Of a stretch of DNA of 64,000 nt, positions 8,340-61,065 are shown piece after piece; positions within the stretch are counted from its first letter, which is position 1; each line of letters opens with the position of its first letter. Both the position numbers and the translations under genes were made by a program. The stretch comes from Raillietiella orientalis. Its lineage: Eukaryota. The notes below the pieces were generated by a model. It had not been told where the DNA came from and ran no database searches. It saw nothing but the letters and a program-made list of their open reading frames with translations. The stretch spans positions 1,798,001 through 1,862,000 of the forward strand of contig JAYWIR010000015.1 of the NCBI GenBank assembly GCA_036172245.1. Reading direction: 5' to 3'.

Positions 8340-8925
8340 CAGCGTCTCCCTTGTGCTTGGGAATGCTTGCGTGTAGGCCGATGCCTTTCTTTTTGCAGAG
8401 CCTCGCAGGTCAGCTGCCCTGAGCGCTCATCCTATCTGGGAATGCATCTGTCGGCAGGAAACCTGCTCGGGTCTTTTCCCGAGGAGGGTTTGCATTCGTG
8501 TTCTTTGCGCCGCCGCGAGTGCTGTCTGCGAGTCGAAGGTTGGCTCCAGAACATCTTCTCGCACCTCTCTTTACCCGCGCGAACAACGCTCGCGTCGGCT
8601 GGGCCATGATCGAGCCTCGGCCGCGCGCAGTCTGATGCCCTTCCTTCGCTACGGAGAAGAGGGCTGTAGGGCTGTAGTAGCAGTCTCAATGCCTTCTTCA
8701 CCCTTTTCCTCTCTGGAAATTCATTTACTGATCGATGCTCCTCTCTTGCCCTTGCTCCGAGCAGTCCCTGCGGCCGACCTGCGAGTCGATGTGCCGTCCC
8801 TCGCTTGAACTTCTTTTCGTTCCTTTTCTTGCGTGTCCTTCGCACCATCAGGAACTCTGTTTCTCAGTTTCGTTCCTTCTTTTCAAATAAACTCCTGCCA
8901 TCCATCCTGCCATAGACGCCCCCTC
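8340..8925 (+). mobile_element. L1/Tx1-like fragment, probably lineage Y (copy Y3), internally deleted, with 3' end
   Basis: 'SYLGMHL...GW...HLSLPARTTL' (RT YLG and thumb). The 3' UTR shares CCCTTGCTCCGA with Y2. AATAAA at 8886-8891 is followed by CTCCTGCCAT, similar to the Y1 terminus. Confidence 0.45.
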
Positions 8926-9300
8926 ATCTGGGACAGACGGACCATCTATTGAAAATAAATAAACAGATTAGGACGAATGCAGCTGGAGACCGACGTGTAT
9001 CGACCCAGATCCACAAGAATCACCCTCGCTGGGGACGAAACTGGGGAGAAGTGGGGGCAAGGAGAAAAGAGAGAGGGTCGATAAATAAATAGAAAATGAA
9101 GTGGACACGCCACACGGCGCTCAGCATGGCTCCCGAGGGTCTGAATCGGACAGGAAGCGGGTGGGTGCGCTCACGGGTATGTCAGGTTGGTACGCGCCAC
9201 GACAGCCCGAAGGTTCCTCTGAACTTTGCATCTCAGACTGGGCCATTTTTCGCCTTGTCGAATCGAATCGACCTTGTCGAATCAAATTGACCTTCACTCC
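8926..9300 (-). mobile_element. L1/Tx1-like lineage X 3' end (copy X3)
   Basis: The reverse complement of 8973-9006 (GGGTCGATACACGTCGGTCTCCAGCTGCATTCGT) and the flanking TTTATTTAT tracts match the X 3' UTR at 23996-24050 and 11802-11860. Confidence 0.6.
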
Positions 9301-9724
9301 TTTCTCATGAACTCCGAGACCCCCGCATCCGAGAATTGCATCCGCAGCGCTCTTGCGGATACCAACACAAAGCCGGAAGGCATGACGCGTTGTCGAAGGA
9401 AGGGATGGAGGTGGGGCAAAGGGGTGGTGGTGTAACTGCTTTTCACTTCATTCCCTATTTATTTCTTGAACCCTTCCCACCTTTCCCTCCACTCCTCCCC
9501 CTCTTCCCAGAAACGGGCGAAGGGAGGAAGAGGGTACCAGGACAGGGATAGGGAAAAGAACAAGACTGTTTACCTGAGAAACCTCTTCTACGGCAGGTGA
9601 ACGGGGAACAGCAGTCGAGAGCGAAACCGGGCACGGCAGCCGTTGCACTCCGCGATCCCGGGGAAGTCCGAGGCAGCACCCGCTCGTTCGCTGGATGTGG
9701 AATGAGCGTCTTTTTGTACCCCGG

Positions 9725-11921
9725 AAGAGACGGAGCCTGGGAAGCGGGATGAGGTCAGAAGGACTTCCTCTGCAGCGGATCGCCTTTGCCGTCGTCTTCG
9801 ATGCACGTCAACGAGAACTCACGTGGCACAGGGATCTTTCCCAGAGAACGGACACCGCAGCATCCCGGAGAAATTCTCCATATCTCTCAAATGGAGTGGA
9901 CGGCCGAACGGTAGATCTTCATGTCACCATTCAACAGGACGACCAGTCCGAGGAGCCGGTTGGTGACGTCCCGGAACTACCCGTGAAGGTTGCCGGAGAG
10001 CATATTTGACGGAGAAAGCGAAGCCATCTCCTGCCAAAGGAGGAGGGATGGGAGAGAAGCGTGTCTTCCAGAGCAAAGGGTGTACCCATTGCTCTGGAAT
10101 TCACCCGTGCTAAGAGACGCCAGGAGCCTCTGCTTGGGTCCGAGAAGGGACGGGAAGCCGAGCAAGGTCTTCCTCCTCCGAACAAGAAGGACCCAGCAGG
10201 CCGAGATGGCGGCAACTTCCCAACGGCTTCCTTCTGTGCGGCACCCGTGGAGTGCGAACTTTTCTGGAAGCTGCCGCGGGAAGGCATTCCCGCCGCGGAA
10301 GAGAGCACACACAACCAGATGACCTCCTTTCGATGGAGGTGATCCATCGAAAAATCCAAGAAGCGCAAAGCACCAGCAACGGCTTGCCGGAAAAGTTCCA
10401 CCAGAGTCTCCCTGAGGGTCCCCTGCTGCTCAGTGCGATGCTCCGGAGGAGAGCATCCTCTCGGGACACGCTCATGCGCTCCGCGTCCCTGTACGGCGTC
10501 TTGCCGTACCAGAAGAAGGTGACCCAGGCTGGACGCCATACGTTGCCGCAGCGCTGCCTTCTCTCCGGGCAAGCACAGATGGTTGCCAGCCGACGAGGTG
10601 GGAGGTCTCCTGCACAATTGCAGGAGTCGCAGAACTCCTGGACGGCTGGACAACGAGCGACTGGTGGACACTCCTCGTTTCCGGGCGGAGGGACTTCTTC
10701 GACCTGCTTGGTGCGCCCCTAGAAGAAATTGTAGTCCCTCCTCCGTGTCCGGACACTTCAGTGTCCCTCTCGAGGTGGAAACAGATGTGCCGCACTGGGG
10801 TCCCAGTGTAGCCAGCGTAGGCATGTGTTTTCCGGAGGAGCCGCGTTCCTTTTCTGAGATGGAATCTTTCCCCGGCCTCTCGATGGTCCTCCTCGAAGAT
10901 CTGTGGGGGAGGCGCCTTCGGCGCCCCGGCGCCCGCCTTGGGTTTGCTGCGGCGACTCCTCGCGCGCGGAGGACTCTCGGCAGGTGCAGTGGTCGCTCCG
11001 AGATGCTGCATCCGCGCCACCGTCGCAGCCGTGTTGGAGTGTTGGAGTCTCGGGTGCAGCGAGGGGAGACCGCCGACAAGGCAGCCGCCTTAACGGGAGG
11101 TCTGCATGGAGATCGCCGCCATGGATGTACAACTGTAGGAGGGAAGGCGTGGCCTCAATACCAAAGCTCCCTGTCCCTCCTTTCCCTTTATTTCTCCCTA
11201 CTGTCCTCTTCTTCCCGTTCCGGACTTCAATGGACTCCGGACTTCCGCTCAATGGAACGTCGTCTCCATTGAGTAGATGAATCCATGGGGTCGGACACGA
11301 GCACGCAATGCACATTGGCAAAGGTCACCAGTGGCTTGCCATGTTTCCCTATTTTTTTTTTTAAAGGGAGGGAGGTCGAGCACTCACTGTCCTGCGTCGC
11401 GAGGAGTCATCCAGGAAGGAAGGTTCCATGAAAGCTTTGGAAGATGCTTATGCAAGTGAAGGGATGCAAAAAGGAGCAACGGAAGGAACCTGTAGAAGAT
11501 GCGTCGCGGAAAGCGATACGCCTGCATCTCTGTGGCCATATGAGAACCTCATGCCTTGCAGTCGGGATCCCTAGATTCCACCCAAACCTCGACTCCCAGA
11601 TTCTCCGTTGTTTTCGACCCTTTCACGGACCGAGAGCGTAACTCCCATCCCTCCCATCCCTGTCCTATCCGACGCAAGTCCTCGTCAGTCATGCTGACGA
11701 TAGGAGCTAGCCAGTCCCGCTCCCTATTTATCTACCGTCTCTTGCTGCTTCCCCCTTTCCTCCATAGTTCTGTTCTTGGAGAGGGTAGTCCTTGTAGTTA
11801 CGAACCGACGCGTATCAGTGTCGAACTGCATCTGTTTCGATTTATTTATTTATTATTTTAAAAAATAACATCGGCGATCCATAAATAAATAATTTATTTA
11901 TTTATGTATCGGCGACGAGAA
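9725..11921 (+). mobile_element. L1/Tx1-like lineage X, 5'-truncated (copy X2), interrupted by a V insertion
   Basis: 'LLPKEEG' (GGL region), 'YGVLPYQKKV...QRCLL' and 'LLHNC' (zf-RVT-like). Shares CCAGAAGAAGGT and GGAGT(C/G)ATC(C/A)AGGAA with X1. Carries the X 3' UTR motif and ends ATCGGCGACGAGAA at 11921. Confidence 0.7.
10750..11370 (+). mobile_element. L1/Tx1-like lineage V 3' fragment nested in X2
   Basis: 'PHWGP' (the V HWG motif), GCTGCATCCGCG shared with the V copy at ~44785, and a V-like UTR (CCCGTTCCGGACT). X homology stops near 10740 and resumes near 11390. Confidence 0.5.
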
Positions 11922-14300
11922 GGTCACCTTAGGGAATTTATTCAAATTAAATAAATGAATGTGCACCTTGGGCGCGCGAGTCAACCCGCAGGCCGGTAGC
12001 TGAGAGAAAAACGCGCTAGGTAAGGAGACATTAAGAAGTAGAGAAGGGGATAAAAATAAATAAATACATGACGCGGGGGGACAAATGCTTGCCGTCTTCG
12101 GAGCAAGGGATAATGGGTCGGTGGGAGAGAGAAAGGAGGGTCACCGATTTCCTGTCTTCCGTCTTTCACACAGTCTCTCCTCAATCCGGACGAAATTCTC
12201 CTTGATTCCGGGGAGGCCATCTTGCTACTTTCCTTCTCGTGGATAGGAGGAAGTGGATGCCTCTTCCTCTGGTACTACTGCTGCTGCTTCTCCAGCTCGT
12301 GGAGATTGGTGACTGCTTCTCGGATGCTGCGCATCATCATTAGCGGTCCGGCGGACGTTTTTTTTTTGCGGCGCAAACAGCCGCTGAAGAAGCTGTCAAG
12401 GGAGTCCATCCGATCTGCGGGAGGGCTGCTGCCACTCGCTGCCATCCATTGAAGAGAAAGTCACAGTCCAAAAGCAGCAGTGAGGGCCCCTTGATCTTCC
12501 TGGATGAAACAGTGGTCTGCATCATTCTCCTGGACAGCTCAGTGCTTCCCCTTCAGTGGTAACTGGCAGTAAACACCCTTCCTGCACTGGAATTGACTGG
12601 CCTTCCCATCGAAGCAGGCGCCACACAGGAGAGGAAGCCGGGTGGAAGCTGCTGATGGGTTCATCCATGTCCCTCTGACTCGTCTCCTCTGGCTCTTTCC
12701 GGCGCCGCAGGCGCAGCAGGAGGAGGAAGAGACGTCGGGTCGGCAAGACCCTGACAGAGCTTCGAATGGGCACACAGCATTGCGTGTTGCCACACCCTCG
12801 TCCACGCGAGTCCATCGTGCCTCTAGGCACCACGGAAGTAAGAACGCTGGGAAAAATTCATGCCCGAAGCAATCGAGGAGGAGGAGCTGCGTGAATCCGG
12901 CGGGACATCCCAAGCGTATCGAGCACTCTTGGACAGCGGACGGGAGGGCTCCCGGTCGAATAAAGGTGGAGGCGAACGAGACGGACCCGGAGCCACTGTC
13001 GGGGGATGTGCGCCCGACCGGAACGCGGAGGGAGGATCCGCCTGCGGTCTACATGCGCTCCGGAGCGAGGAGGCGCGGCACCACCTCTCGGAGGAGAGCC
13101 CAAGTCGGACACCTGCCATGGGGCAGCGTTTCGGTGCCGCCGCCTCCACAGCCCATTCCTCCGGGAGCAGCACGGATCGTGCGAGCGCCTGTTGACCGGG
13201 CGTTCTCAAAGTCACTGCCGGGTACATGCAGCTCCGATAGCTCCTGGTATGAATATTTCCCAGCGTTCTTCCGGCTGTGACGCCTGAAGACCACCAGTGT
13301 TTGTGCTGCCCATCTCTAAGCCGGGAGAGAATCGCTGCGGACACGAAGACGCAGCTGCCCAGTTGGAGAGAGGGCAGCCCGGAGGGGTGGTTGGTTTCCC
13401 AAGCAGCGGTCACTCCTGGACGAGGGGAAGGAGTGGGCTCTTGTCGACAGTCCGCCTTTCTGGAACCCCACTGCAGGTCTGGCAGACCCAGGACGGAGCA
13501 AGAGGGGGGGGTTTATGCCACGGACGGACTCTCTCGTTCGCTAGTGGTTAGCACAGTGGGTTTCCCGCGGCAGGTCGGGGTAGCAGGCGCACCAGGACAC
13601 GAACACGCTTTGGAAGTCCTCGGTAGGGAATCTCTGCTCCTTCCTCCTGGGTACCGGGAAACTTCCTGTAAGATGGCCCCAATTCGCGCGCTTAGTTTCC
13701 ATCTCGAGGCGGTCCAATCGCGCTCTCTGCGGACTGATCTTGAGGCGGCGCTGGCCGAGAGAGGCCCCAGGAGGCGAGAGGAAGAGAGGAGCGCCAGTCT
13801 GCAAGCCGTGGAGCCCCAAGGAAGATCCTCCCGGGCGTTCTAATCGTCCGCAAGCTGGAGGTGAACCTCTGCCGTCGTACTGCGGTCGACCATGAACTCC
13901 CTGGCCGTCACCTCGGGAGATTCAGACGACCTGGGTTCGACGAGACGACTGGCATCCTTCTGCTCATGTGCTTCCTGTTTCGCAGCCGAGGAGATCTGCA
14001 TAAAGAGGAAGATGGGTGGAGGTTGGCAGGCGATTCCGAGAGGAGCCAAGACTCCAGCGAGCCGTAGAGCGTGGGTTGCAGGTGGCAGCGCGGAGCCAAG
14101 GTGCTGCAGCTGACGCTCGAAGGCGTTCTTCAGACAGAGAGAGCAGACGGGATCCTCAATTTTCCTGACACAAGTGTCTGGACATTCCGCGCGAACTGCT
14201 CCCTTTTCGGGACGATCTGCAGCATCTTTTCTCATCAATTCGACGGTAGCCGCGTTTGATCCGAACAGAGAGAGCTGGCAAACTGCGCTCTCCTGAACGT
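11922..14300 (-). mobile_element. L1/Tx1-like lineage Y ORF2 pseudogene, RT to 3' end (copy Y2)
   Basis: 'SLCLKNAFERQ' (D..KAFD), 'GIACQPPPIFLF' (QG.PLS..LF position), 'HLQLADD' and 'VLGLPDL'. The 3' part is homologous to 24075-24450. AATAAA (minus strand) lies at 11937-11942. Confidence 0.75.
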
Positions 14301-14789
14301 TCTCGGCGTTACCGTCTCCTGTGGCGACAACGCTTCCCTCTCCATCGTCTACGAGAGAGAGGATGAAGGGAAAATTCTCCGGAGCGCGATCACGTTTGCT
14401 TCCTCAGAGAGTGGAAAAGAAAGGCAACGCTCGGATCCTAACGCCTCCATCACACCCTCCTCGCGCCAGCAATCCGGAGTCCCTGACGCGACGAAATGCT
14501 GACTGGCTCTTTATTTCTCTGGATGCTCCTCCTTTCGAACGGCAAGAATGAAAAACTCGGGAAGGGGAGGAAGGGGAGAGGATACTTGCTCATTCTTAGC
14601 TGCGATCCTACTCACGGAGTCTGCGCTTCTTATCACCTTTTTTTCCTTCTGATTCGAGGTCATCACCAACTGCCACGAGACTTCAGTGTACGGCTTGGTC
14701 AGAGTCCTGTGAACACTTGCCTATCTTTCCTTGCTTCTGGGCGCGCTGATCGCAGTTTGCAGCTCTCTGATTTTGTTCTGAGTGACCTC

Positions 14790-16050
14790 GAGAGGGAAGA
14801 GGTCTACGGTTGACGAGTTACCTGGAGGTGTGTCCTTCGAAATTCCTCCCGACCTTTCCTTCTGGAAAGAGAACCGCGTCACAGCAGGGCGCATGCACGC
14901 CAAGCCGAGGCTAGTCACGTGATTCTCATAAAGCCAAATTTGCCAACTGATCTCGAAGGGGATGGACGTCCAAGAAGTAACCATGGATGCATGGACATTT
15001 GTCAATAAAAGAGCCAGCCTACTCATCAAGAAATCAATGAGAAGTGCCGGTCTGGCACGTGAGCACATAAGACATACGATCGGAACGTCTTGGCTAACGC
15101 AACTTCTTCTACGAGACCTAAAACTTCTCTTTATACGGCTGCTCTAAACTGTTTCAGAACTGGCAAGGTCCATCCTGAGGGGCGTTGCGTTTGTTTGAAT
15201 ATCAGAAAAATTTTGTACTCGCAGGGGCCCACGGAGTAATGACGAAAGCATCCGGGAAGTCACGGAAGAAGTCGAGTGACAGCAGAGGAGGTTTCAGGGA
15301 GAATCATCTGAGGTCGCATTAGGTGTCCGCGCGGTACACGAAAGAGAAGATCACCTCTGGCCCGCTCACGATTCAAGGCAAGGCATTCCGAGCATCCCTC
15401 GCCACGTAACGCTAGGTTCAAGAGAAGACAAGCGTCGGGAATCACCGCAGGTCTCAACACCGTCGGTTCGCGGATTGCAGGTCCATCCGTGCGGCGGCAC
15501 GACTCGACCTTCCTGACCGTGCACACAGCGCCCGCCAGGGACGGCGCTGGTCTCGGTGTGCAAACGGTGGGAGGGATGCCACGTTACGCCCCCCTCGACG
15601 GACGTGTCGACTACCGAACCGCCCGATTATCGCGGAGAGGCACAGGGAGCTGGTGACCCGGATCAAGACGGGGCATTGTGCCCGGAAGCGCTGGCAGTTG
15701 GAAGCCGCCAACCAAACTGTTCCGGGACTGAAGACAGGGCCGTGCAGAAGGAAGATCATCATGCTGCGCGCGTCACGTGTCCTCTTCGAAGATGCAGCGG
15801 CGGCGGCACCAAAAGAAGCGGGGGCTGGCTGTCTGCTTTGTCCCGAAGCCATCGCCCACTTCCCTGAGAGTGCTCGCTCCTGTCAGGGTACCTGGAATCC
15901 GGGAATACAGCCAATGGCGAAGTGCTGAAAGAGCAGGAAATTTCGGATGGACAGGTGTGGCCCACCAGAAGGGAGGTGGTGTGCTCACACGTCCCAGCGC
16001 CTCGGAAGATGTCCAGGAACACGAAGAGGAGCAGATACTGGAGCCTCCCT
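14790..16050 (+). mobile_element. NeSL/Utopia-like RLE retrotransposon 3' region (lineage Z)
   Basis: Mixed frames give 'ERHRELVTRIK', 'ANQTV', 'VTCP(L)FEDAAAA' and 'GTWNP', matching the RH..IV / ENQ / DVTCPFE / GSWDP order of NeSL-clade C-termini. Homologous to 33290-35100. Confidence 0.7.
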
Positions 16051-16449: not shown

Positions 16450-17480
16450 TTTCCGCTGAGACGGGTCGTAGCTACCTTTTGAGAAGAGCACCCGTGGATC
16501 TCTTGCCGCCTCTCAAACTACAACGCTTGGTGGCAGGAAGCGGTTGGAACCTGGAACCGCATAATGCGCACTGATAACTCTTACCTACATCCTGGGAGGA
16601 GTCTCCTCGGAAGAAGTGGAAAGGGACCGAAAGAAGTGGTCCCAAGCCACTGCCAGCCCCATAGCCGCAGCTCTGTCCTCCCTACGAGCGACAAGGACGG
16701 TTGTCGACCGGCAGGGTGGATCACTGCGTGCTCTGTAGCCGGAGGGACGAAACTGATGGACCGATTGGCTGATAGGGTGACACCCGGTGACCGCGCGCTG
16801 AAGAAAGAAGCTCCGCTGGGGATCTTGACCCCTTCTTTCTGTATGGACAGGGCCGTGCTCTCCCTCGGGTGGCAGTACGAGGAGGCTTTGCCGCTCGCGC
16901 ACTTCCCGTGCAACCAGCGGCGGCTTTGCTGAAAGGAGGGGAGGGAAGAGCACCTCTTCTGGAGTGCGCCCACTGCGGGGAAGTGGGGACTGACCAGCGC
17001 GCCCGCTGCTGGGAAACGGCGAGCTTCGGGGAGTGCGGAAACGTCTCTCGGCTGCCCCGCCTCGACTCGATCACCCCCCCACAAGGGTGCTGCTCCCTGC
17101 GAGCCAAATACTTCCGCCTGCTTCCCTGTGCTGCGTCAGGGGTGTCCCGGAACGCACCGAAGCTGCTTTAGTAAGGACCGAAGGCCGTGCGCCTCGCCCA
17201 TTTAAGGATGAGGAATGCGGCCAAGTGGTCTCATCTTCAACAACGGATGTACGAGGATGCTGCCAGCACCGGTGGAACGCGGTGGCTGTGACTGATGGGT
17301 GACCTTTGTTTCTTCCTCCCTTTTTATGTATTTATCATTCTTACCCCCCCATACCTTCCCGACACTTCTGGTAGACGGTCTGCAAGTCAGTGGTCTTTTT
17401 TGTCTTCGTCCTCCTGGAAATCTCGGAACCATCCAATGGATTTATTCATCTACATTGGATATTTTCCTTTCTCCTTTGCA
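16450..17480 (+). mobile_element. L1/Tx1-like 3' fragment (lineage W, related to Y/V)
   Basis: 'HFPCNQRRLC*KEGREEHLFWS' (zf-RVT C..E..HLF.C), followed by a pyrimidine-rich UTR. Confidence 0.55.
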
Positions 17481-18950: not shown

Positions 18951-19799
18951 TTCAGGAAGCGAAAGGGCATGGATGAATCCAGTCGGCTTTCTCGGCCACG
19001 CACTGCAGATGAGGCGGAATCCAGGACCTACCTGGTCTAAGCATACCAGTCGCTCTTACTATATATAGTAGGCCATCTAGGACTTGCGTCGGTTGAGCGC
19101 TCTTTGGTGGACTTCCTTAAGAACCGACCTGCGTGCCAGTGGTCATTCCCAGCAAACTTCTTTTTATTCTTCTGGGGAACTAAGTTTCGAACTTATGAGT
19201 TCATTTCTAAGTAAATGCCTTGGTGTGACCAGTGAACACAGTCCAGAAGTTTCTGGTGTTTGCAATGTGAAGTCGGTCGTGTGTGTGTGTGTTTTTTTTA
19301 ATGCCAGAGATGGCGTGAGTCTGCTGAGAGAAGGAACCAAGTCAGCAGCAGCAGCAACGCCGTGCTGAACGCCACGAACTCGTACCAGGTCGACACACAC
19401 ACGCACCGCCGAGTAAACACAGGAACGAAGACACACTCCAGGAGCAGACACAACAGAGCGGGTGCGAGGAAGCACGCTGGAGGAAGAGGGGAACGGAAGG
19501 CCTGCAGACCGGAAACCACAGCAAAACAAACACCGAAAAGTAGGTTTTTTCTGAATGAAGGAAAGGGAAAGCTGGAATGCCTCTCGGTGGTCAGCTGGAG
19601 GCAAGTCGTTCGGCTCACTTGCAAAGATCCAGGACTGACTCCACGACTGCTGATGGACACTCTCTGGCTAATGGCAGGCAGAAGGTTCCTCTCTGTCAAG
19701 GAAAACCATTCAGTGGTAGTGGCTTTGCTATCTGGTGTGAGGTAATGGATAAAAGAGAAGTCCTTTACCGGTCCTCTGCGCCTCGCGGCATTGCACGCG

Positions 19800-21040
19800 T
19801 TCCGCTCTAAGCCTAACGTGTTGTGTTCCCCTCTCTGGGGGGACTGGTCAGTGATCTGGCTGCAGGGTCCGTAACCCTGCACGAGGGGGAAGCGGCTGCC
19901 ATAGACTACAGGTCGGCGCAGAATGTGTCGGCCTATGGTATCCAGGGGAAGCCGAAACCGTGCGGCGACCGCAATAGAACACGGCACCTGAAGAGAAGGT
20001 GTCTTGAAATAACTCGCCCCCTCTGCGGTCCGTTGGGTCCAGAAGGACTCGATTGCAGCTCGTTGCAGAAAATCATGAACTGCCCACAGAAGACCACATG
20101 AGAGCAGAACACCCCACTTGCGGTCACGCTGGACACCATGCTACAAAGTGGAAATAGAGATGCGCCCACAAGATGGGAAGTATCTTGTGAGATCTCGGGA
20201 AAAAAGGAACAACCGGGATGCTGGGTCAATTGGCTGGTGCATGCATTTTCATTGCTTTCCTCAAGGGAATTCGTCGCTCTGTGTAACTCCTGGACATTCT
20301 TTCTGAAGAGGCAGGAATACCCCAGTGCTTGTGGAAGCGGCAGAACTTGGCATGCAGATGTTGCACTGGGCGATCCCATGCAACGCGAGAGTCCACCAGT
20401 GGACGAGAGAGAGGGTCGCCCCAGACTGTGCCAGGTGAGGGGAAAGGGAAACCATCCCGCACCTGTTGTTGGATTATGTTGCTTCCCTGAGTGTCAGGGA
20501 ACGCTTCGCTGAGGCTTTTCCACTCTCGATGGGCAACGATGGAGTGTTCTTGCAGTGCCTCTTCGCGCGCGACTCCATGTCGCCTGAAGTTTCCCTTACA
20601 GCTCCGTGCGGCCTTCGTGGGATCGCGGCGGCGAGAGGCCGCCCAGAAAAGGCCAGTCCGAAGGTGAGGTCATCCCAGTCGCCTGCTCCTTCACGAGGAA
20701 GGCGGCGAGAAGATGATCGCACTTCTGCCAACAAAAAGAGAAAGTTGCCAAAATCCTCCAGAGGGTGCTGAAGACTCCAGGAAGAAATATGTATTCCCAT
20801 CCCCCCCAACATATTTTTAAACTGAACCTCTTTGTTTTTCTGTTTTTTGGTTATTCCTTCTTTCCCTCCTCCTGTGCGGACCTCATCGGGGGAGCTGCTC
20901 ACGAGAAGCAGCACCTCTGAAACATTTCCCTTCTCAGTGGTGATGTAAAGCCACTACGAAGAAAGACATTTTCTTATATTTTATGACTTTTTGTAAATAA
21001 CTTTTTTACAATAAAGCCCCAGAGTGACCGGCAGAAATAA
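19800..21040 (+). mobile_element. L1/Tx1-like lineage V 3' fragment
   Basis: 'LHWAIPCNA' and 'PDCAR*GERETIPHLLLD'. Terminus AATAAA (21010-21015)-GCCCCAGAGTGACC-GG. Confidence 0.75.
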
Positions 21041-22620
21041 AGGGCTCGCTCTCGAATTCCCTGTAGTGAAATCGAGAAAGAGAGCCGCGCGGAGAGTGGA
21101 TCTCAGTTCAGGTGGAGCGCCGTGCCACGTTACCATCTTGAGGGGAAGCGGAGGAAGAGCATGGAAGTGTCCAGACTCAGGAAGGGGACGAAAAGCTCTC
21201 CCGGGCGCACACGCAAAGTTTCATCCCACAGTTCTCTGCAGTTCCTTCGCCTGGAAGCAGAGAGTGACCGCGTTGGCCAGCGTTTTGGAGGTGCATCCGC
21301 CTAGGGGACTGCAACCCTAGGCCTGCAGAGCTCCCATTTTTCCAGCTGGCAGCTGCCTCTGCTTTTCCACAGATAAGATGGCTCTGAGGTCAAAATTGCG
21401 GTGTATGCGCGGGTCCCTTTCGTTGCTTCCTCGGCAATCTTCCGCAGAGACATCCTGTCGAACTGTTCGACCGGGACGGGATCTCCCAGGCTGGTGCTGG
21501 TCGGCCGAGCTCAAGTATCCACAGATCTCCGCTTCCAAGCGTGAGAGTTCGAAAGGGAGGTAGAAGATCCATCTGCAGGTTTCCAGCGGGAAGGCGAGCT
21601 ACTCCGGGGAACATCCCAAGAGTTTCATCCATTTCAGGTTGCGGGATAGGAAGGGCGCGAGTCCCTCGAAATCAGTCTCTTGCTGTAGGACGTAGCGAGA
21701 GGAAAGGCATCATTGCTGATTTCATGCCTTCTCTGTGAGGGCAGATGCAGGCGCTGCGTAAGCCTCAAGGATGCTGCTTCCCATGAAGGAATTCCTGACT
21801 GGCTATCCTCCGGATGGAGAGAATGGAGCTGCTGCTCGACCCTTGTCCTTTGGCTCCCTATTATTTTTTATTTTGTTTTCTCGTTCCCCACTCCCTCTCG
21901 CCCGTAACTTCCTTGTTTTTTTTTTGCTTTCATCTCGGCGCATCTAGAGCGCCGACGCCGGCATCGCGCCATGCCGTGCCGGCTGCTTCCGCAGGCGAGT
22001 CGCTCTGCGGAGGCACGCTCCTTTGCGGACTCCTCCTTCCGTGGCGGTTGCTCCGTCGGACTGCTGCTACCCATGGCAACCAGCGCCACTCACCGGTTGC
22101 GACTAGCTCGGCGGCGCTTCTTCCTCTTCGCTGCTCCTACGCATTTGAGGAGGCACCAGTGCTCGAGCAAGGCGGACTGCTCACTCGTTGAAGGTCCGAG
22201 AATGGATTGAGGTCATTCCGCCTTCTTGGCCTCTCAAATTGTTTGCCTCGCCGCAAGGTGGGACTCCTCCTTCCCTCTCCCTGCAGGAGCGGCAGCTATC
22301 CTGAAGCAATGGGAGTGGTGGCTGCTGGTTACCGCAGTGGACATCAATGGCAGCTGACGATGAGGGGGAGAAGGAGGGAGGAAGGCAGGCAGAGACTCTA
22401 GAGGGAACCAGCTAGCTGCCAGATGGTTCGATGAGCCTTCCACGCGCGCACGTGGCGGTTCTCGTGGGTCTGAGATCCGCCGTCACGGTGCACGCATGAT
22501 GGTGGCACTAGGGTTCCTCTCGGCTTCTTCCTATCCAGGCGCGCAGTTGGTCACCCAACACTGCTGCTTCCTTGGAAAGCACAGAGGACAGTGCGTCTCT
22601 GAGCAACGCGATGCTTCGAT
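21040..22620 (-). mobile_element. L1-like ORF2 internal fragment, probably lineage X (copy X4)
   Basis: Bases ~22030-22490 are clearly homologous (inverted) to ~37640-38110. The segment near 21230-21390 weakly resembles the X1 GGL region (GCAGAGAACTGTGG vs GCGGAGAGGCTGTGG). Confidence 0.5.
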
Positions 22621-22689: not shown

Positions 22690-24074
22690 TTTAGTTTTCT
22701 TCGTGTTCAAAAGAATTATATATAACAGATGCATCCCATATGATCAATGGCGTTACCTTCGTTATCCCCCGCTCCGAAGTGGACCCGTACTTACCACGGT
22801 TACTGGCGGTTTCTCGCTTCGCTTTTCCGGTCCCTTTCTTTGTGCATTCCGAAGACCGCATCAGGTTGGTGCGTCAATCCCTGAGGGCATTCTCCAGATC
22901 TGAGGTGCGACCAGAAGGTTTACTCCCTCCTCGACAAGAGGGAGGTCTGTAGACTCGTTCTCCTGCAAACGAATGCAGATGTGAGCATCGTTCAGGCTGT
23001 TTATCCTCGCGGAGAGGCTGTGGAACACTCGCCAGTGTGTTTCTTTGCGCATCCTGCTAAAGAATGCCGGAAACCAATGAGCATCCATTCTTCCAGGCAA
23101 CCGAGGCGAGGGCGAGGTGTGGGTCACTTGCCTAGCTTCACTGAGGTGCTGGTGGAGGAACACGGGTGCCGAACAGGAACGCCTGGAGTCCGCAATCACT
23201 AGGAACGTAGATGTGGGAGGAACGCTCTACCCGCAGCGCCATCAGCCGTCTGGGGAGACTCCTTACTCTAGGGATGCTGGCCAATGTTGGTCCATTTCCA
23301 GACTTCGTGTGACCACTGAGGATGTTATGTGTCCATTGCACTTCAATCGTTGGGATTGAGAGGACGAGGATGCTCCTGCAGCATGGGGGGTGACCTGCAA
23401 GGGCCATGAAATCCGTTGGCCAGAAGAAGGTCGCTCGCCTGGAGCACAAGGCTGCTCTGAAAGCTCCAGCTCGCGGTCCCCAGAGATGGACAAAATCTCC
23501 GTGGACTCCCTGGGAGAGCTTGGTGCTTCCTGGTCGACGTCTTCGTCTTCCCTCTTTGGTTCCAGAGGTCGGCGCTTTCTGCTGCAGTCGGCGCTCCTCC
23601 AAATCGAGGAACGCCATCACGCCTCAGCGGGGGGAGTGATCAAGGAATGCCCCCCCCCCTTCCCCTGCAGGACGGTGGGGACTCTCCCGCGCGTGCTGCT
23701 GGAAGGCAGGAGGATGCGTCAAGGATGGGAGCGCATTGCAGAGGCATGAAGCAGAGGGCGACGAAACGGACCAATCTGGGATACGGGGCGTGAGAGAGCC
23801 TTCGAGTACTTGTAGGCAGACTGATCCGAAACCGGTGAGAGCACCCCCACCCTTCCCATTTTGTCCCTGCCCTGCCCGACGCGGACCTCCGGGAATCAAG
23901 TAAAGCACCTTGAAGCCTCTCGCTTCTCCTATTTATTTATTTACTTATTTCTTGTCGCTCTCTCCTCCCTCCCTCCTAAGATCTCTCCCATGTGCGGGTC
24001 GACGACATGTCGGTCTCAAGCTGCGTTTGTTTCGCTTGGATTTATTTATTTGAAATAAATGATCGGGATGAAAA
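22690..24074 (+). mobile_element. L1/Tx1-like lineage X, 5'-truncated (copy X1)
   Basis: 'LLPPRQEGGL', 'RMLLQHG', the X 3' UTR motif at 23996-24030, AATAAA at 24054-24059, and the end ATCGGGATGAAAA at 24074. Confidence 0.7.
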
Positions 24075-25850
24075 GGTTATGCAGGGATGTTTATTCAGAT
24101 TTTAAAAATTAACGTGCCTGGGGAATATGACTCGAAGAACGCTGACATGTAGTCGGTAGCTAATAGAAAAAGGCTCTCAGTAAGCAAGAGTTCATGGGGT
24201 GAGTAGGGAGGTTTTCGCCCCACATCCTTCTCGCAGCCTTCCCCCAGTCCGGGAGGAGTCCTCCTTGATTTCCGTTCGGAGATAACATCATCCAGCTACC
24301 CTACTCCTTGTGGGCGGGCTGATGCGAATGCTCGTCCTCCGATGCTCCACCGCGTGATGATGAGCGACTGCTACTCGGATGCTGCTCAGCGTCTCTGACG
24401 GTCCAATGGTCGAGCCGCCGTGGAAGCTGCAAAAGGGGGCCCTCCAACCTGCAGAAGGGTTGCTAGCCCTCCCTGACAACTACTGGGGAAAGAGTCGTGA
24501 TCTAAAAGCAGGAGCCGGCGCGGTTCGACCAACCGTCCTGCCTGCACGGCCCACAGACGCGTTCCCTGTCGTCCAGCGCCGCCGGCGTTGGCTGCAAGGA
24601 AGGTCCCATCGCAGGGATCCGCGTGTGGCCACCTGAGGGGCAGCGCAGAACCTCTCAAAGGGCACCACTGGCACGTCTTGGAGAACGTCGAGATCGTCTG
24701 TCTACCGGCGCACTCCTCGGGCGCGGGCACTAGTCGTCGCGGTGTCCGAAAGTTGTGGAACCGACCACCAGTCTGGTAGCGGAGACCTCGGCTGCTGTCA
24801 TCGCGCTCCCACAGAGAGGGCAGTGCTGCGGATAGGAGCGTGGCTGTGCGCTTTTCTTGGGTGTGGTGGTGGCTCTTCCTGTGGAGGCGGTGTCCCGAGG
24901 TCACATTGGACGGGGCGAAGCAGCTCTGGGCTGGCCCGCACCGGTATCCGGACCTTCGCCTCCCTGGGAGAAGCGGTGGGTCCGCGAACGGCCAGCAAGG
25001 ATGAGGACAACTCTTGCCAAGGTGTGGGGAGGAGGGGTTAAGTTGGCGGCGGCGGGATTGGAACTCTCGACCTTCCTCAGGTCGGAGAGCGTGCGGTTCC
25101 CTCCACCTCTGCGCCACGCGCACGCCCGGGGAACTGATCGAGCGCCGTCGCCCGCTGGCGGCTCGAGTGCGCAGGTCCGTGCTCACTCGGCCGACGTCCA
25201 CGCTGGTCGACGCCATCGTGCCGCCGAGTTGCTTCTCGAAATTTCACCTCCTTTCGGAGACCGTCGCTCTCGCCGCCATCCCAGCATCCCCGCGAGCAGA
25301 GGACGGGAGTGCAAGCGACCCCTGGTTCTCTCCGTTCCCGCGAGAGGGAGCGGTCAAGCGTATGGTACGTTCTGTGCCGCGTAAGTGAACACGATGGTGA
25401 TTTCGGAGCAGCAGAGATGTGTCTGACACGCCTCCATCGCTCCATTATTGATGTTTGTTCCGTCTTCCAGAAACGGAGGGCAGCCTCTTTCTCTCTGGAC
25501 CGTTTCCTTTCAAACATTAAGCGATTTCTTTGCATGCTGCAGGTCATCTGCGAAATCATACTTCATCAGGATCTTTGATAGAGTGTGATTATCGCGAGTG
25601 ATGAACGCACTGCTGACTCCTTCGTCATATTGTGGTCTTGAGCCGCATGCAACCTCCGGTTACAAGCGTGTGCAAATCCTCGCCCCAGCATATTTGCCCC
25701 TCTCCCACGTGAGAATTGGGCTCCTGTAGCTGCGTACACAGAGGGGTCACAGTGTCAGCGCCTGGGTCTTCTGCGATAGCGACGAGCTGAAATTTCCCCG
25801 ATGCGATCCAGAAGTTCCGTTTAGCGCGTGGTCCTTCTCGGTTAAGAGAT
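24075..25850 (-). mobile_element. L1/Tx1-like lineage Y ORF2 pseudogene (copy Y1)
   Basis: 'YDFADDL' (~25540-25560), 'GTNINN', 'LRPEEG' and 'WDLPCSQR'. The 3' region is homologous to Y2. AATAAA (minus strand) lies at 24090-24095. Confidence 0.7.
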
Positions 25851-27894: not shown

Positions 27895-29870
27895 TTGCTA
27901 CTTGCTCACGCCAGGGCGTTTATTAATAAGCTCTGTAAATTCGTGGTACTAGGCCCTGCCACGGCCAATAGATCTTGGGGTCTGCCGGGAAGCCGGTATG
28001 CAGACCAGCTGAACTCTCCTCAGCAGCGGAGGGGGCTGGGGGAAAAAACGAAAAGAAAAATAAATGAAACAAAAAAAAAAAAGAAGAAACTATTTGGAGG
28101 TCCGGGAAGGGATTACAATACGCTGGAGGGAGGGTCCATCCTTCGCAGGATGCCGTCGAGGCCCCTCTGCATGCTTCCCAGATGGGACCATCTGATCGCG
28201 ATTCGCAGGTAGCGACTAGCGTGTACGGTGGGGTCCCTATCGCTGCTTCCTCTGTTGGCTGCGCTCCACGCAGCCACAATCCCTCGGAGGCAGCACAGCC
28301 CTGCCAGGGCTGAGGCTGGTTACAGGGCGTCTTGCACGAAGAGGAGCACAGAGTCTTTGGGGGGCTACCGACAGGGATCCGGAGGGTCGTCGCAAAACGC
28401 TCTCACAAGGGCCGGAGGGCAGCGCAGTCCACTAACAGGTGGGGGAGGGATTCCTTGTCCCCGTACAATGCACAGTTCTGTCTACCTTCCCCAGGGTCTA
28501 GTAGTGGCGGCGTGCGTTGCAGGGGAGACCCCAGTACAACAGCAGGAGAGCCGACTCCTGCCAACTGAGGGGGAGGATGCTTCTCTGGTTCAATACTAAG
28601 GGCCATTTCACGTCATCCAGCAGGATGTCGAGCAGCTCGCTCCATCTCTGTAGTCCTCGCGGAGGGACGCTCAGAGCCGTGGCGTCCTCCAGCTGCCCCA
28701 TGGTCCAACCGCTCAGCTTCTTCTTTCTGCCTGCGATCCGGCAGGGTACTTACCACCTCGGTTTCCGGCTGCTGTCAAGTGCCCTCCTCAAGAAGAGCAT
28801 CGCTGTAGCTAGGGTGGTCGTCTCTGGCCACGTGCTCCTGGCGGTTCACTCCAGTATGGTCCACAGAGAGCAACGGGCGTAGTTGCTGTTTCACGGGCAG
28901 TTCCATGGGCTGGTTAATCTCTCACGTGCAAACTGTTTCCTCTAGCCATGCGCTGGAGTTGGCGGGGCTACACACCACCCAGCCGTTCTTCTTGTTCAGC
29001 GTGGCCATGCGTCCGAGGAAGAGGCCTCATCTTCTTATCTTCCGGCCGGGGCACAGAAGATGAGACGCAAGTCCTTTCGTTACGGAGACACGGCAGGCGA
29101 GAAGACGGGAGGGAAGGCACCACGGGGTGCTCCAGTACTTCTCTGTGATGGCCATGGTTCGCCATCGCAGCTGTATATCCATCCGCTCCAGCGTCAGAAG
29201 ACCAAGACCGCCATCCCGATACGCGGAGCACATAAGTCCTTTAGCGGGACTCGGGGCCTCCCACTGCCCCACAGGGCGATCCGCAGGAGGTCCTTTGTCC
29301 GTTTTTTCAACAACGGGGGGACGGGACAAACAAAAAGCAGAAGGCGGAGGAGGGAGGCCACGAACGCGTTCCACCTTGCGGCCATCTTCCAGCAAGAGGA
29401 ACTTGCCTTCCAGGAACGGGCCGATCTCGAGCTCCACTTTCTGGAGACGACCTGATCAGACTTCTGTCAGACAAAAGTCCCCCAACGGAACGCCAAAGTA
29501 CTTCAAATACCTGCCCGTGGGGGTCATTAAACGGATCCAGTCAGGCCGTCCATCCCACGTCGCACCAACTGCCACCACTGACGACTTTGCCCTGTTCACC
29601 CTAAGTCCTGTCCTGCGGCTCAACAGCTCAAAAAAATTCTCAAGTGCTGATGCCGGGGTGGAGATGGGCAGCAGGAGCAGAAGATCATCAGCATATGCTG
29701 ACACAGAAGGCGTACTGGGAACTCCTGCCAGCGTCCAGCGCGGGGAGCGCCAGGAGTGGCGCCTGGTGAGCGCAGCCCATCGTGGACAGGGGGATGAAGT
29801 CCGAGGCTTCCGGTGGAAGGGTATGCTGTAGCAGCTGTGGAGCGGTAACAGGAAGGACAGACGACATTTG
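27895..29870 (-). mobile_element. L1/Tx1-like lineage V ORF2 pseudogene, RT to 3' end
   Basis: 'SAYADDLLLLL...TGLRVNRAKS...LKYFGVPL' (RT domains 5-7), 'LYWGLPCNA' and 'ESLPHLLVDCAAL'. AATAAA (minus strand) at 27919-27924 is followed by CGCCCTGGCGTGAGC. Confidence 0.85.
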
Positions 29871-29911
29871 CGACCTAGTTGACCCGGTTATCTGATTCCC
29901 GGCATCAGTCC

Positions 29912-41497: not shown

Positions 41498-42355
41498 CGA
41501 GGCGCATTTACGAAACTCTTTGCTAAAGCAATGAATGATCGAGTAGAAAGAAAGAACAAAGAAGAGAAACAAAAGTGTCATGATGGTTCGAAACACGTAC
41601 ATCCCGATGTCATTTTTCTACGTAGTCACCGTTTTTTTTCAAACACTTTTAATGCCGTAGAAGAAGCTTTTTGGAACTGTCTGCCTAAAATTCCGCCTTC
41701 TGGGAGTTCAGTCAGTTCAGCAGCACTGCGGTTTCCAACTCCTCTCTTTCCCCCTCGAATCGTTGAGCCACTTCTTGAGGCGCAGGAAGACGTGGTAGTC
41801 AGATGGTGGAACCAAAAGGGTGTGTGCATTTGGAGGACTTTATGGAGCCTGGAACGACCATCATGTCGCAAGTCTACTGTGTACAAACACTTTCAGAGCT
41901 GCAGAGTGTCATTCAGAACCGACGACGTGGAATGCTGAGATCAGGGATCGTTCTTCTCCTTCATGACAACACGCGCCTTGGCAGCACATGCTATCTCCGC
42001 ATTCCAGACAATTCGGAAATTCAAATGGGAACTTTTTGAGCACCCACCTTGGAGTCCTGTCGAGTGACTACCACCACCCCTTCCTTCCTGCACCTCCAGG
42101 AGTGGCTTGCTTCCCAAAGATTCGAGTGGAAAACTGCAGTGCCGCCGAACCGGCTGAGCTGCCAGGAGGCGGAATTTGGTGCAGAGGCTTTCAAAAAGCT
42201 TCTTCCACGGCATCAAAAGTGTTTGGAAAAAAATGGTGACTTCGTAGGAAAATGCCATGGGGATGCACGTGGTTCGAACCACCAGAGCCATTTTTCTTTC
42301 TCTTATTTGTTCGTTCCTTCAATACGATCGGCCCTTACTACTGAGATGCGCCTCG
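41498..42355 (+). mobile_element. Fold-back mariner derivative with two inverted transposase 3' ends
   Basis: 41807-42355 is the transposase 3' half plus TIR, ending GCGCCTCG followed by TA (42356-42357). 41498-41808 is an inverted, diverged 3' end: the minus strand reads 'PSDYHVFLRLKKWL', and a TIR-like CGAGGCGCAT starts at 41498. Confidence 0.9.
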
Positions 42356-42469
42356 TATGTATAGCTTCGTTTGCCATTGCGAGCAAGGATGCAAAATTTC
42401 TGAACATTCAGTGCGATTGTGAATTTATCATGTTGTTGTCCAGTATTAAAAAACACTTCAAGAATGACG

Positions 42470-53699: not shown

Positions 53700-55560
53700 G
53701 CCCTTCCTCATCTCTCTGGGTCCCAGTGCCCGAGACTGGAATGGTACAAACAAGTGCAGCCGGTGCTGCATAGGCTGCACGTCTTCCTTCAGCATGCCTT
53801 CAGCATGCGCGGAAGAACTCAATAGAGGCGTTTATCTCGCGGCCGTGCAAAGTGAGATGCAGAGGAGGCAGGAGAGGTCACTGCACCACCCCTTGGCAGG
53901 GAGCTGCCCCCACCGTCGCTGTCGCTGCAGACGCCCGCGTGCGCGACGAACGAGTGCACCAAGGTCTTCAAAGAGAGACCGTCCGCGCCTCTTTCTCCGG
54001 CGCCAGTCCAGTCAGGCGTGCTTTGGAGGTGACTGGGAGAGGCACCAATCACTCCGCATCTGGGTTGGATCGAGAGTGCGGTGGGACCCAGCTCCGGGTG
54101 GAAAGGCCGCCGGCACACCTTGCAGCCGACTCCGGGAGCATCCTTTTCCGCGGGAACAGCTCTGCAAAGTGGTTTCGTGGAGAGAAGAACCCCCACACAC
54201 AGCAACCGGTTGCTGGCAGGCCCTTAGGCGCCTTCTGGGACAAGCCAGGTGTCGGCCGAGACCAGGCAGGTGGGCAGGAGGAGCACTCCGGGATGGCGAT
54301 CGACCCAGAAGAATTTCCGAGTCCCGGAATCCCGAATGTCCATCTCCAGACCCAGATGTCCTCGGGATCGCGACTCCCCGTTCCCAGGACCATTCTGGAA
54401 ATCCATCGTTCCTCGCGTCTCTCCCAGTGTAACGCCTTCCCTCATCGGGATACGGGAAGATCCGGGATGAGGGAGTAGCCGCCATTTCTCCATCTTCCCC
54501 TTTTTTCCCCTTTGTTTTCCGCGAACCGCCTGGGACCGCACTTCAAGGTCTTCCAGAGATCTGTGGTTTCCCTAGGAAACTTCGTGGGGACTTCGATGGG
54601 ACGGGTGAAGCGGGTGTCTCCTGCTGTTGCCGCGGACGCTCTTCGATCAGGTGGGAGCGGGTGCTGCTCGATGGTCCTCGCGGAGGAGGGAGGACGGATG
54701 ACGCCCGCGTTCCCGATGCCGCACCGGGACCAGGGACGGACGACCGGGCAGCAGAAAGACTGGACGCTAGCAGTGGTCAGGAGTAACAGGAGTCTGAGAA
54801 TGGGGTGCGAACGGTCCGCCTCAGGGCCATTGGACGAAGGATTTGGCCACTTAGCAGAGCTGGTCGCTTTAGAAATTCGATTCTTGCGCATCCTCCAGAG
54901 AGGGCCTCTCGTTTCCAGCAGACGACAATGCTGCGAAGGACTGTGGCCGAACGATCTCGAAATGTGAGAATGCCATGAAAGAAGGTAAACGGTGAACGGC
55001 CTCCGAGGTAAACGGACGGAGGTCATTGTGGTTCGTGTCTTCTCGAAGCGTTCCGTCTGGGGCCATTGCGTGGAGACCTTCCTTCCGGTCTTTTCCCCTT
55101 CCTCGAAAAGGAATGTCGCCCTATCGAAGGCAAACTGTTCCTGGAGTGCGTTCCGAATGCTGAGGGGCACACCAGAGAGTGCGACGCAGAGCATTGAGGG
55201 GCCGCTGACCAGAGTGAGAAACCGGAGCTGAAGGCGGCCGCTGGCAGTGCGAAAGCGTGAGAGGGGAGCTGCTGGGGTATCCGTTGGAGGACTCGGAGTG
55301 GGACCAGTGCATGGCTTTCTTCAAAAAGTAGCTCTCAGCGGCCCTCGCATCCTTGGGGGAAGAAATGAAGCTGACCGAGAAACAAAATGATAAGAGCTCT
55401 GGGGGCAAGCGTAGCGGCATCCAGATCCTCTCCACGCCTGTTTCTCGCGCTCGCCACGAGTGCACACGTCATCATTCAATTGCTTCTCGAAAGGAGGCCG
55501 CTCTTGGGGCGAGGAGTGAGGGCATCCGTCTCTGCCTGCGGCATCCGTGGCACCAGTTGG
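53700..55560 (-). mobile_element. L1-like ORF2 fragment (lineage U)
   Basis: 'ATFLFEEGEKT' (tether eGE motif), 'HPILRLLLL', and 'HLGLEMDIRDSG' homologous to ~27300. Confidence 0.5.
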
Positions 55561-59747: not shown

Positions 59748-60329
59748 GACGATTTTGACCTCATCGTGGCAATGACGAACTGCGTTCGTGCTGACGGCTT
59801 CCCAGTACATGCCAGTGGTTGCTGCTGTGCCGATGTTCCTCGTGGAGCGTTCGCCGGACTTGCCTGGACGTCCAGGCACCCAGAAGATGAACGAGGTGAG
59901 CTATTTCGAAAAGTGCAGCGTCGGCTCCATCCGCCCCACTCTTTGCACAAGCGCGTCGCTACGCTCTTTCCCCCGCTGCCACCAGGTTACGCTCTCCTGA
60001 CTCTCGGGATTCGAGTTGCAGGTCGAGATTTTGCACATGGAGAACGGAAGCTGTCGATCCTTCTTCATCTTGGAGAGCATGTGAATCAGAGACACATGGA
60101 GGCTGATGGCCCTTCCGCGCGAAAAAAAAAATTTCCGAGGAAACTCAGCACGAGGGTGCATCTCTGTTCCGACAGCACTGAGAAAGAGATGACAGCTGCG
60201 AACCAGCGAGATGGGAGGTCGCCTGCACCATCGCAGGAACAACACGACCCATTGGCGGCAGGAGGACTTGCGAGCTGGCAGACGCCGCCACGCCTCGCCA
60301 CATCCCGAAGGGACTCCTACGGTGGAGTG

Positions 60330-61065
60330 AACACTTGAGTGTGCCCCCCGAACAACTTGTGGTCCCTCCCTCCTGTTTGAACACTTCTGTGTTCCCCCTT
60401 TCGTGGAAGCAGGACGTCATCATGCTGGTGTATTGGGGTTTTCACTCCAACCAGCGGACGAACCGTGTTTCCGGGGGAGTTGTCTCCCCAAACTGTAAGC
60501 GGTGCGGGGAAGTGGAAACGCTCCCGCACCTGCTCCTGGACTGCGGTGCCCTCCTAGGACTTTGGCGGAGGCTGGCCTCAGCTCTCCTACACCAGGGGGA
60601 CACCGCGAGAGACTTGATGCGCCGCTTCTTCACGCCAGGCGGCCTGTCTTTAGGTGCTGACGTTGCAACCGTGTGTTGCACCCGCGCCATCGACAAGGCA
60701 CACCGAGAGCTGGAGAAGCTCGCGATTCATCGTCAGGCCACCGGAATAGCCGGCGTGAACATGGCATCGGCTGCCGAGTGGGCCCATCTTCCAGAGAGCG
60801 TGAGGAGAGAGATCGCCGGCATCCATCGCCGGTTCTGAAAGGAAGGAACGGCCGAACCAAAGACCCCTGTCCCCTGCCCTCCATATTTTTATTTTTATTT
60901 TTTTATAGGAGTGTATTTGTGGTCCCCTCCCTCCCGTTCCGGACTTTCGGCATATTGATCTGCGTGTCGGGGATTCCACCCCCTTCGTCTCTTGTTTTCC
61001 CTTTGTCCAGGAACTCTGTTCCCGGATAGTTTTTAATAAACGCCCCGGCGCACCCGGGTGATAAA
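60330..61065 (+). mobile_element. L1/Tx1-like lineage V 3' fragment with the best-preserved zf-RVT
   Basis: ORF 60335-60838 contains 'VYWGF...CKRCGEVETLPHLLLDCGALLGLW'. Terminus AATAAA (61035-61040)-CGCCCCGGCGCACCC-GGGTGATAAA. Confidence 0.85.

Follow-up and report, generated by a model that had tools for sequence, protein, structure and literature searches.

Antisense tail-to-tail junctions between two LINE lineages in a repeat-rich region of Raillietiella orientalis

The region described here is a stretch of 64,000 nucleotides (nt) from Raillietiella orientalis (assembly GCA_036172245.1, contig JAYWIR010000015.1, positions 1,798,001 to 1,862,000 of the forward strand), hereafter the window; coordinates are those of the window. 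It contains no N, has a GC content of ~0.44–0.62 and holds no recognisable gene. The whole of it is repeat debris, a graveyard for 5'-truncated members of a single superfamily of long interspersed nuclear elements (LINEs). The ~20 fragments, all of them 3' parts, were joined into this superfamily by sensitive self-BLAST (47 pairs) and by nhmmer profiles built from copies in the window. At two loci, and probably at a third, the 3' end of a copy of one lineage (X) abuts, in antisense orientation, the cut 3' end of a copy of another lineage (Y). The copies are only ~60–65% alike, which leaves short motifs and boundaries uncertain.

Junctions between X and Y 3' ends

The junction loci contain the following features.

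11653..11921, plus strand: X2b, X-type LINE 3' untranslated region (3'UTR) and terminus ...ATCGGCGACGAGAA; homologous to 8953–9165 (reverse complement) by self-BLAST
11922..12485, minus strand: Y2, Y-lineage 3' segment with a decayed CCHC region, the end of open reading frame 2 (ORF2) and the 3'UTR; nhmmer positions 512–1073, E 2e-52
12427..12567, plus strand: inverted piece of the LINE family of Y2 at the 5' end of Y2; profile positions 312–437, E 1.8e-10
22949..24074, plus strand: Xl2, X-lineage copy of at least 1.13 kb; upstream profile E 7.6e-16 at 22949–23201, 3' profile E 1e-28 and 9e-21
24075..24837, minus strand: Yl2, Y-lineage copy, contiguous over profile positions 182–1074; E 2.7e-96
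8920..9262, minus strand: X3, third X-type 3'UTR and terminus; homologous to 23757–24064 and 11653–11851 by self-BLAST
8886..8919, plus strand: Y3, putative V/Y-type end abutting X3; AATAAA followed by 28 nt

The uninterrupted terminus of the superfamily can be read from related copies, referred to as V-type. The initial annotation had stated that such elements continue with GGGT(A)n at the point where Y2 stops, and they do exist: among the ~20 fragments found by nhmmer, nine V-type copies have an uninterrupted 3' end, six of them with a clear motif and three degenerate.

Clear V-type ends: V1 33593, V2 51893, V3 59749, V4 61065, 63526 and 17648
Degenerate V-type tails: 21031, 19237 and 27903

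The six clear ends read hexamer-N(9–15)-GGGT(R)A-rich, five of them with a spacing of exactly 15 nt, and in all nine relatives ACC is followed by GGGT, intact or decayed. The terminus of the superfamily is AATAAA-N15-GGGT(R)A-rich, with little or no poly(A) where it is visible. No intact end of the Y lineage is present in the window, as against the nine intact V-type ends. A profile test on end pieces of 180 nt was uninformative, missing even true members, and was discarded. A consensus structure was sought in the V 3' ends and none was found.

At the first locus, AATAAA on the minus strand (11942–11937) is followed by 15 nt, TTCCCTAAGGTGACC, at 11936–11922. Here Y2 ends without GGGT(A)n, cut exactly before GGGT, and a plus-strand X-type 3' end, ...ATCGGCGACGAGAA, stops antisense against it at 11921. 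The initial annotation had described the Y2 end, the X 3' end and the sequence at 9711–9724 in the same letters, which we verified one by one, and its insertion geometry at 11921/11922 is also borne out: X extends in full to its A-rich end, and all that is missing from Y is the terminal GGGT(A)n, which the nine relatives retain in intact or decayed form. X is taken as complete because, by eye, the X 3' ends align with V 3'UTRs and finish in an A-rich stretch that resembles the V ends. The X2b fragment may start near 11500, to judge from a non-significant local match.

The second junction lies at 24074/24075. Xl2, which has an internal deletion of profile positions 573–783, ends ...ATCGGGATGAAAA and again abuts an antisense end cut after AATAAA and 15 nt (CATCCCTGCATAACC), without GGGT(A)n. 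Alignment of the two loci crosses the junction, covering positions 11–78 of an 80-nt window centred on it, with a score of 20 against a null of 9.3 ± 1.7 that was reached by 0 of 500 shuffles. Y2 is homologous to 24075–24514 by self-BLAST. The junction recurs to the base, with homology on both sides, and the partner copies are unlike in 5' extent and structure, an outcome that the initial annotation had named as support. Y2 runs from ~555 to 1073 and carries the inverted 312–437 piece, whereas Yl2 is contiguous. Xl2 reaches at least 1.13 kb upstream; at the first locus X-type homology stops within ~270–560 nt and is preceded by other DNA. Self-BLAST detected no homology between the two loci beyond the elements. 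A homology boundary near 23748/9262 was considered as a shared X truncation point and rejected, as it coincides with the internal deletion of Xl2.

A third X/Y junction is probably present at 8919/8920. Its X3 side is significant, the alignment score being reached by 2/500 and 0/500 shuffles. Without what looks by eye like a 12-nt tandem duplication, the spacing in Y3 would be ~15 nt. Other matches to a weight matrix of V/Y ends (43432, 30900, 14983 and 39995) have no LINE context and were set aside. The three X 3' ends, 11653–11921, 23740–24074 and 8920–9262 (minus strand), correspond to those named in the initial annotation; they are homologous by self-BLAST, by profile and by pairwise alignment (pair scores of 23–36, null 99th percentile of 15). 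The tally is thus two secure junctions and one probable among three alignable X ends, all three of which abut such a cut end.

One further X-like piece lies close to X3.

9441..9524, plus strand: W, short X-like 3'UTR piece, 3' end not placeable; X profile E 0.0046

Its Smith-Waterman score against X3 is 26 (null 99th percentile 15). Near Xl2, a 460-nt repeat forms an inverted pair (22033–22494 and 38103–37636, 86% identity), and its copy at 22033–22494 ends ~450 nt upstream of the detected start of Xl2.

The tail motif and the interval at the first locus

On the far side of the interval that precedes the first junction, 9711–9724 reads CCGGGGTACAAAAA on the minus strand. The initial annotation took this as the tail missing from Y2, and the interval itself, 9725–11921 ("X2"), as the inserted element.

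9706..9724, minus strand: solo tail-like motif CCGGGGTACAAAAAGACGC, resembling the terminal sequences of V1 (CCGGGTACAAACGAG) and V3 (CCGGGTAAAGACG)
9725..10495, no strand assigned: stretch of ~770 nt between the tail motif and a V-type fragment, origin not recognised
10512..11234, plus strand: Xa, V-type fragment with the ORF2 C-terminal region and the start of the 3'UTR; nhmmer positions 153–961, E 2e-127
11345..11357, plus strand: T11 run between Xa and the X-type tail, read from the letters

The solo tail sits on the strand that an insertion of X into Y predicts, and the sequence that precedes it on the minus strand is not V-like, as expected of a severed tail. We searched both strands of the window with a strict tail pattern, CCGGG(G)T[AG]N0-2AAA. 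The motif is rare: 0.65 matches are expected per window, against six found, namely four V ends, 9724 and 54094. In the 2.2-kb interval, on the right strand, ~0.01 matches are expected. A target-site duplication of Y2 was sought using the flank of the tail and gave no match. On balance, the chances that 9711–9724 is the severed tail of Y2 seem about even. If it is, several later insertions must have taken place between the tail and the X fragment.

The interval did not hold up as a single LINE of 2.2 kb. It is a mosaic of ~770 nt of DNA in which no LINE homology was detected, the V-type fragment Xa and the X-type tail. The first part, 9725–10495, has no match by self-BLAST, with the 3' profile or with the upstream profile, and nothing was found by Pfam; nor does it resemble Xl2 or the long LINE copies, whether compared as DNA or in translation. 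The upstream profile readily detects six other copies as well as 22949–23201. Xa matches the V4 ORF (tblastn, E 8e-13), and self-BLAST places it nearer the V copies than the remaining X copies. It probably extends to ~11335, where GGTCACCAGTGG resembles the end at 19230, judged by eye only. The X-type tail repeats 3'UTR profile positions 885–957 at 11635–11772 (weak, E 0.35). Since these 3'UTR positions are covered twice, Xa and the X-type tail are not one uninterrupted element.

Two candidate features of the interval were dropped. A duplication of 19–20 nt around Xa (10145–10164 and 11364–11382) is not significant, with a score of 12 against a null maximum of 16, and conflicts with the missing upstream homology. 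Similarities noticed by eye, one linking 9742–9780 with 23353–23392 and another linking the X copies in their 5' parts, are likewise not significant.

The X terminus at the first locus is itself partly duplicated. At 11866–11921, ATCGGCGATCC is followed by a 27-nt near-palindrome, CATAAATAAATAATTTATTTATTTATG, and then by ATCGGCGACGAGAA. The partial duplication could be a tiny second insertion of X at the same site or a product of replication slippage.

Possible origins of the junctions

Because the junction is base-precise at two loci, and probably at three, and the outer structures differ, the likeliest explanation is an X endonuclease that strongly preferred the Y terminal motif. An old sub-lineage X would have entered the terminal motif of an old sub-lineage Y, in antisense orientation, by target-primed reverse transcription. 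The nick would lie on the Y sense strand between ...(G)TGACC and GGGT, with priming there; X would be kept whole to its GA(A/G)AA end, and Y would lose its last 6–10 nt. If the tail is accepted, the target duplication at the first locus would be 2 bp (GG), and at least the V-type fragment 10512–11234 and the 770 nt would have entered later between the tail and the X fragment. X may then be, tentatively, a LINE lineage with an endonuclease that recognises the 3'-terminal motif (...GTGACC/GGGT) of a sister LINE lineage and inserts antisense into it, a parasite of a parasite. We favour independent, site-directed insertions of X into the Y end motif over a single composite that was later copied, with a confidence that stays a little under even.

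A number of observations weigh against site-directed insertion. The secure junctions are only two, and their hosts, Y2 and Yl2, are each other's closest kin and belong to one Y lineage. Divergence between the loci is about the same on the X side as on the Y side (score 23 each); X copies that had inserted later and independently should be younger than the elements they entered. None of the nine V-type ends that share the motif was hit, perhaps simply because these are younger. At the third locus the Y3 side is not significant (56/500 and 294/500 shuffles reach the alignment score), and its best site by the weight matrix ranks 108 of ~128,000 positions. The initial annotation had expected (T)nACCC at the 5' borders of other X copies; neither this nor a severed tail was found beside X at the second and third loci. 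At the first locus the tail motif lies 2.2 kb from the cut, behind a mosaic that needs several extra events, and the strict-pattern match at 54094–54104 (plus strand), CCGGGTGGAAA, which has no recognisable LINE on either side, indicates that chance matches occur. Profile boundaries recur near positions 240 and 690 in several copies and could be detection limits, so that 5' ends are uncertain. Finally, no pairing is possible between the primer, which ends ...ACC, and the X RNA, which ends ...GAAAA, and site choice would therefore rest wholly on the endonuclease.

Much of this would also follow from one ancient insertion of X into Y that was later copied as a composite, a serious rival to which we give a substantial share of the probability, well short of an even chance. 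In the window X and Y meet only each other (at all three X ends), and the close kinship of Y2 and Yl2, the equal divergence of the two sides, the junction identical to the base, the lack of an intact Y-lineage end and the untouched V-type ends are all in keeping with it. Three routes to such a composite differ in what they predict. A Y master with an antisense X inside its 3' end could have retrotransposed as a unit, which would leave Y 5' ends at varying positions and a tail on the far side of X, like that at 9711–9724. The summed length at the first locus outside Xa, ~1.3 kb, is also near the reconstructed length of Xl2. This route requires a constant X part, yet 9725–10495 is unlike Xl2 or any LINE copy; there is no tail beyond Xl2, and transcriptional read-through of the Y AATAAA would be needed too. 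Alternatively, an X master could have transduced a flanking antisense Y. In this case the far end of Y should be fixed, but Y2 stops at ~555 with the inverted piece and Yl2 reaches 182. A DNA segment could also have been duplicated and then rearranged, against which stands the lack of homology beyond the elements. It is unlikely that no sequence-specific targeting was involved and that LINE ends are merely a structural or compositional hotspot, or a repair-prone site, where fragments pile up, with the tail at 9711–9724 being a chance match. The ends are AT-rich and carry near-palindromic GGTNACC/CCGG, and the window is dense in nested or adjacent LINE fragments, for example 16487–17469 (plus strand) facing 18641–17649 (minus strand) at a distance of ~180 nt. 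The context-free tail match at 54094 and the nesting hotspots reported within human transposable elements (PMC2836564) point the same way. A hotspot without specificity does not account for the use of the same phosphodiester bond, in the same orientation, at two loci, or for homology that continues across the junction and was not matched by any shuffle. Far less probable still is a reversal of roles, in which the Y lineage naturally ends 15 nt after AATAAA and inserted beside pre-existing X ends. At the second locus both partners end 15 nt after their AATAAA, and the absence of a tail at the second and third loci would fit, but the GGGT, intact or decayed, that follows in all nine relatives makes Y look truncated and X complete, and specificity would still be required to nick directly behind the final A of X.

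Twin priming of L1 produces inverted, 5'-truncated insertions, and the topology of Y2, [inverted 437->312][~555->end], is like that of such products; its gap of ~118 positions is larger than usual for L1. Twin priming joins 5' parts and not tails, and does not explain the tail-to-tail X/Y junction. By reasoning, neither twin priming nor template switching produces a tail-to-tail joint, and priming from two RNAs at one break would give outward tails, not inward ones. In L1 3' transduction and in composite retroposons, a LINE can be copied together with flanking DNA as a unit, which would give identical junctions at several loci. Here, by contrast, the Y parts do not share a far end at the two loci, and one of them is twin-priming-like, which fits separate Y insertions better.

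Target-specific non-LTR retrotransposons (LTR, long terminal repeat) provide the closest parallels. According to PMC4640811, transposons are among their known targets, most target-specific families fall in early-branched, Tx1 and R1 groups, and the elements have precise 3' boundaries and varied 5' boundaries. X resembles Tx1- and R1-clade elements in that its 3' junction is precise and falls at one position of a multicopy repeat, with a 5' side that varies. It would differ from them in its target, a sister LINE whose terminal motif it enters in antisense, and it is seen here in two or three decayed junctions with no endonuclease in the window. Target-specific elements with an apurinic/apyrimidinic endonuclease include Tx1L in the Tx1D transposon and Keno in U2 genes, and Dewa has also been named. 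In human DNA, transposable elements favour certain sites and orientations when they enter older ones (Levy, Schwartz and Ast 2010, PMC2836564). These hotspots are statistical preferences over thousands of events, whereas the X/Y junction is a single-bond junction in a few very old copies. A narrow search of open-access text found no LINE aimed at the terminus of another LINE.

Known LINE targets comprise ribosomal DNA, small nuclear RNA and transfer RNA genes, telomeric repeats, microsatellites and one DNA transposon; the terminus of a related LINE would add a class. If X did target Y, each hit would remove the terminus of the host element and set a convergent transcription unit against it, and the junctions would represent a case of competition between related mobile elements. 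A further question would be whether one protein can read a 3'-end motif both in RNA and in DNA. If the junctions stem instead from one copied composite, they would be ordinary nesting in a repeat graveyard.

The LINE superfamily and other repeats of the window

Members of the superfamily have a reverse transcriptase that carries the YADD box, a CCHC finger where ORF2 ends and a 3'UTR of ~250 nt. The longest LINE copy, 27895–29900 (minus strand), encodes ...SAYADDLLLL..., which contains the YADD box of reverse transcriptase; the family thus carries the F/YxDD box, for which the X2b and Y2 copies are too short. At 29459–29887 (minus strand) Pfam gives a sub-threshold match to RVT_1 (E 0.009, 16.1 bits, cut-off 29.6), and a feature search on this copy returned RVT_1 clusters with a score of 0.94. 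V4 (60182–60835) encodes CKRCGEVETLPHLLLDCGAL, with a CX2C...HX4C motif at the ORF2 end. The one informative homologue in the databases is a 207-aa protein with Pfam zf-RVT (E 5e-5); V4 itself has no Pfam match. Three of the four matches of the V4 ORF in a representative search were set aside as long repetitive proteins with unrelated Pfam families.

The copies in the window also show the 5' truncation, target-site duplication and lack of LTRs of a LINE: by nhmmer, each of the ~20 fragments includes or nears the 3' end. V1 (34812–33588, minus strand) interrupts a copy of another repeat, of which an uninterrupted paralogue, the empty site, lies at 15606–15825. Comparison of this site with 34960–34809 and 33594–33480 reveals a 26-nt target duplication (15710–15735). 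No poly(A) follows the ...GGGTAC end of V1.

The Pfam search covered every stop-to-stop frame of 110 aa or longer, 191 in total (11 + 99 + 81), together with 12 read-through frames of 9400–16000, with stops written as X. No domain in the window was above threshold, the only matches being the sub-threshold RVT_1 and two stray weak ones (DUF4620 and Couple_hipA); the 12 read-through frames gave no LINE-related match. Rfam and tRNA scans of the window returned nothing. No LINE copy in the window reaches the endonuclease, and a full reverse transcriptase of X is likewise absent from the window. Searches for longer homologues with the V4 ORF and the reverse transcriptase piece found none, and protein searches gave no clade. 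In metagenomes the V4 ORF had 141 pattern matches, none of them confirmed, and a DNA pattern of the conserved CCHC region had no matches in metagenome contigs or in genome contigs.

Further pairs of repeats lie in the window. Two LINE fragments in opposite orientation, 20169–21031 (plus strand) and 21578–21151 (minus strand), are 120 nt apart and cover positions 236–1089 and 3–428. The two breaks fall close together in element coordinates; twin priming would not arrange the fragments in this way. The copies at 16487–17469 and 18641–17649 are convergent LINE 3' parts, of which the minus-strand copy keeps an intact tail, CCGGGTAAAAAA; the pair is therefore not a cut junction. A 626-nt inverted repeat, 1526–2151 and 41731–42356, is 98% complementary over a distance of 39.6 kb. 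It is far younger than the LINE debris and has a third copy, at 76–82%, at 41510–41789.

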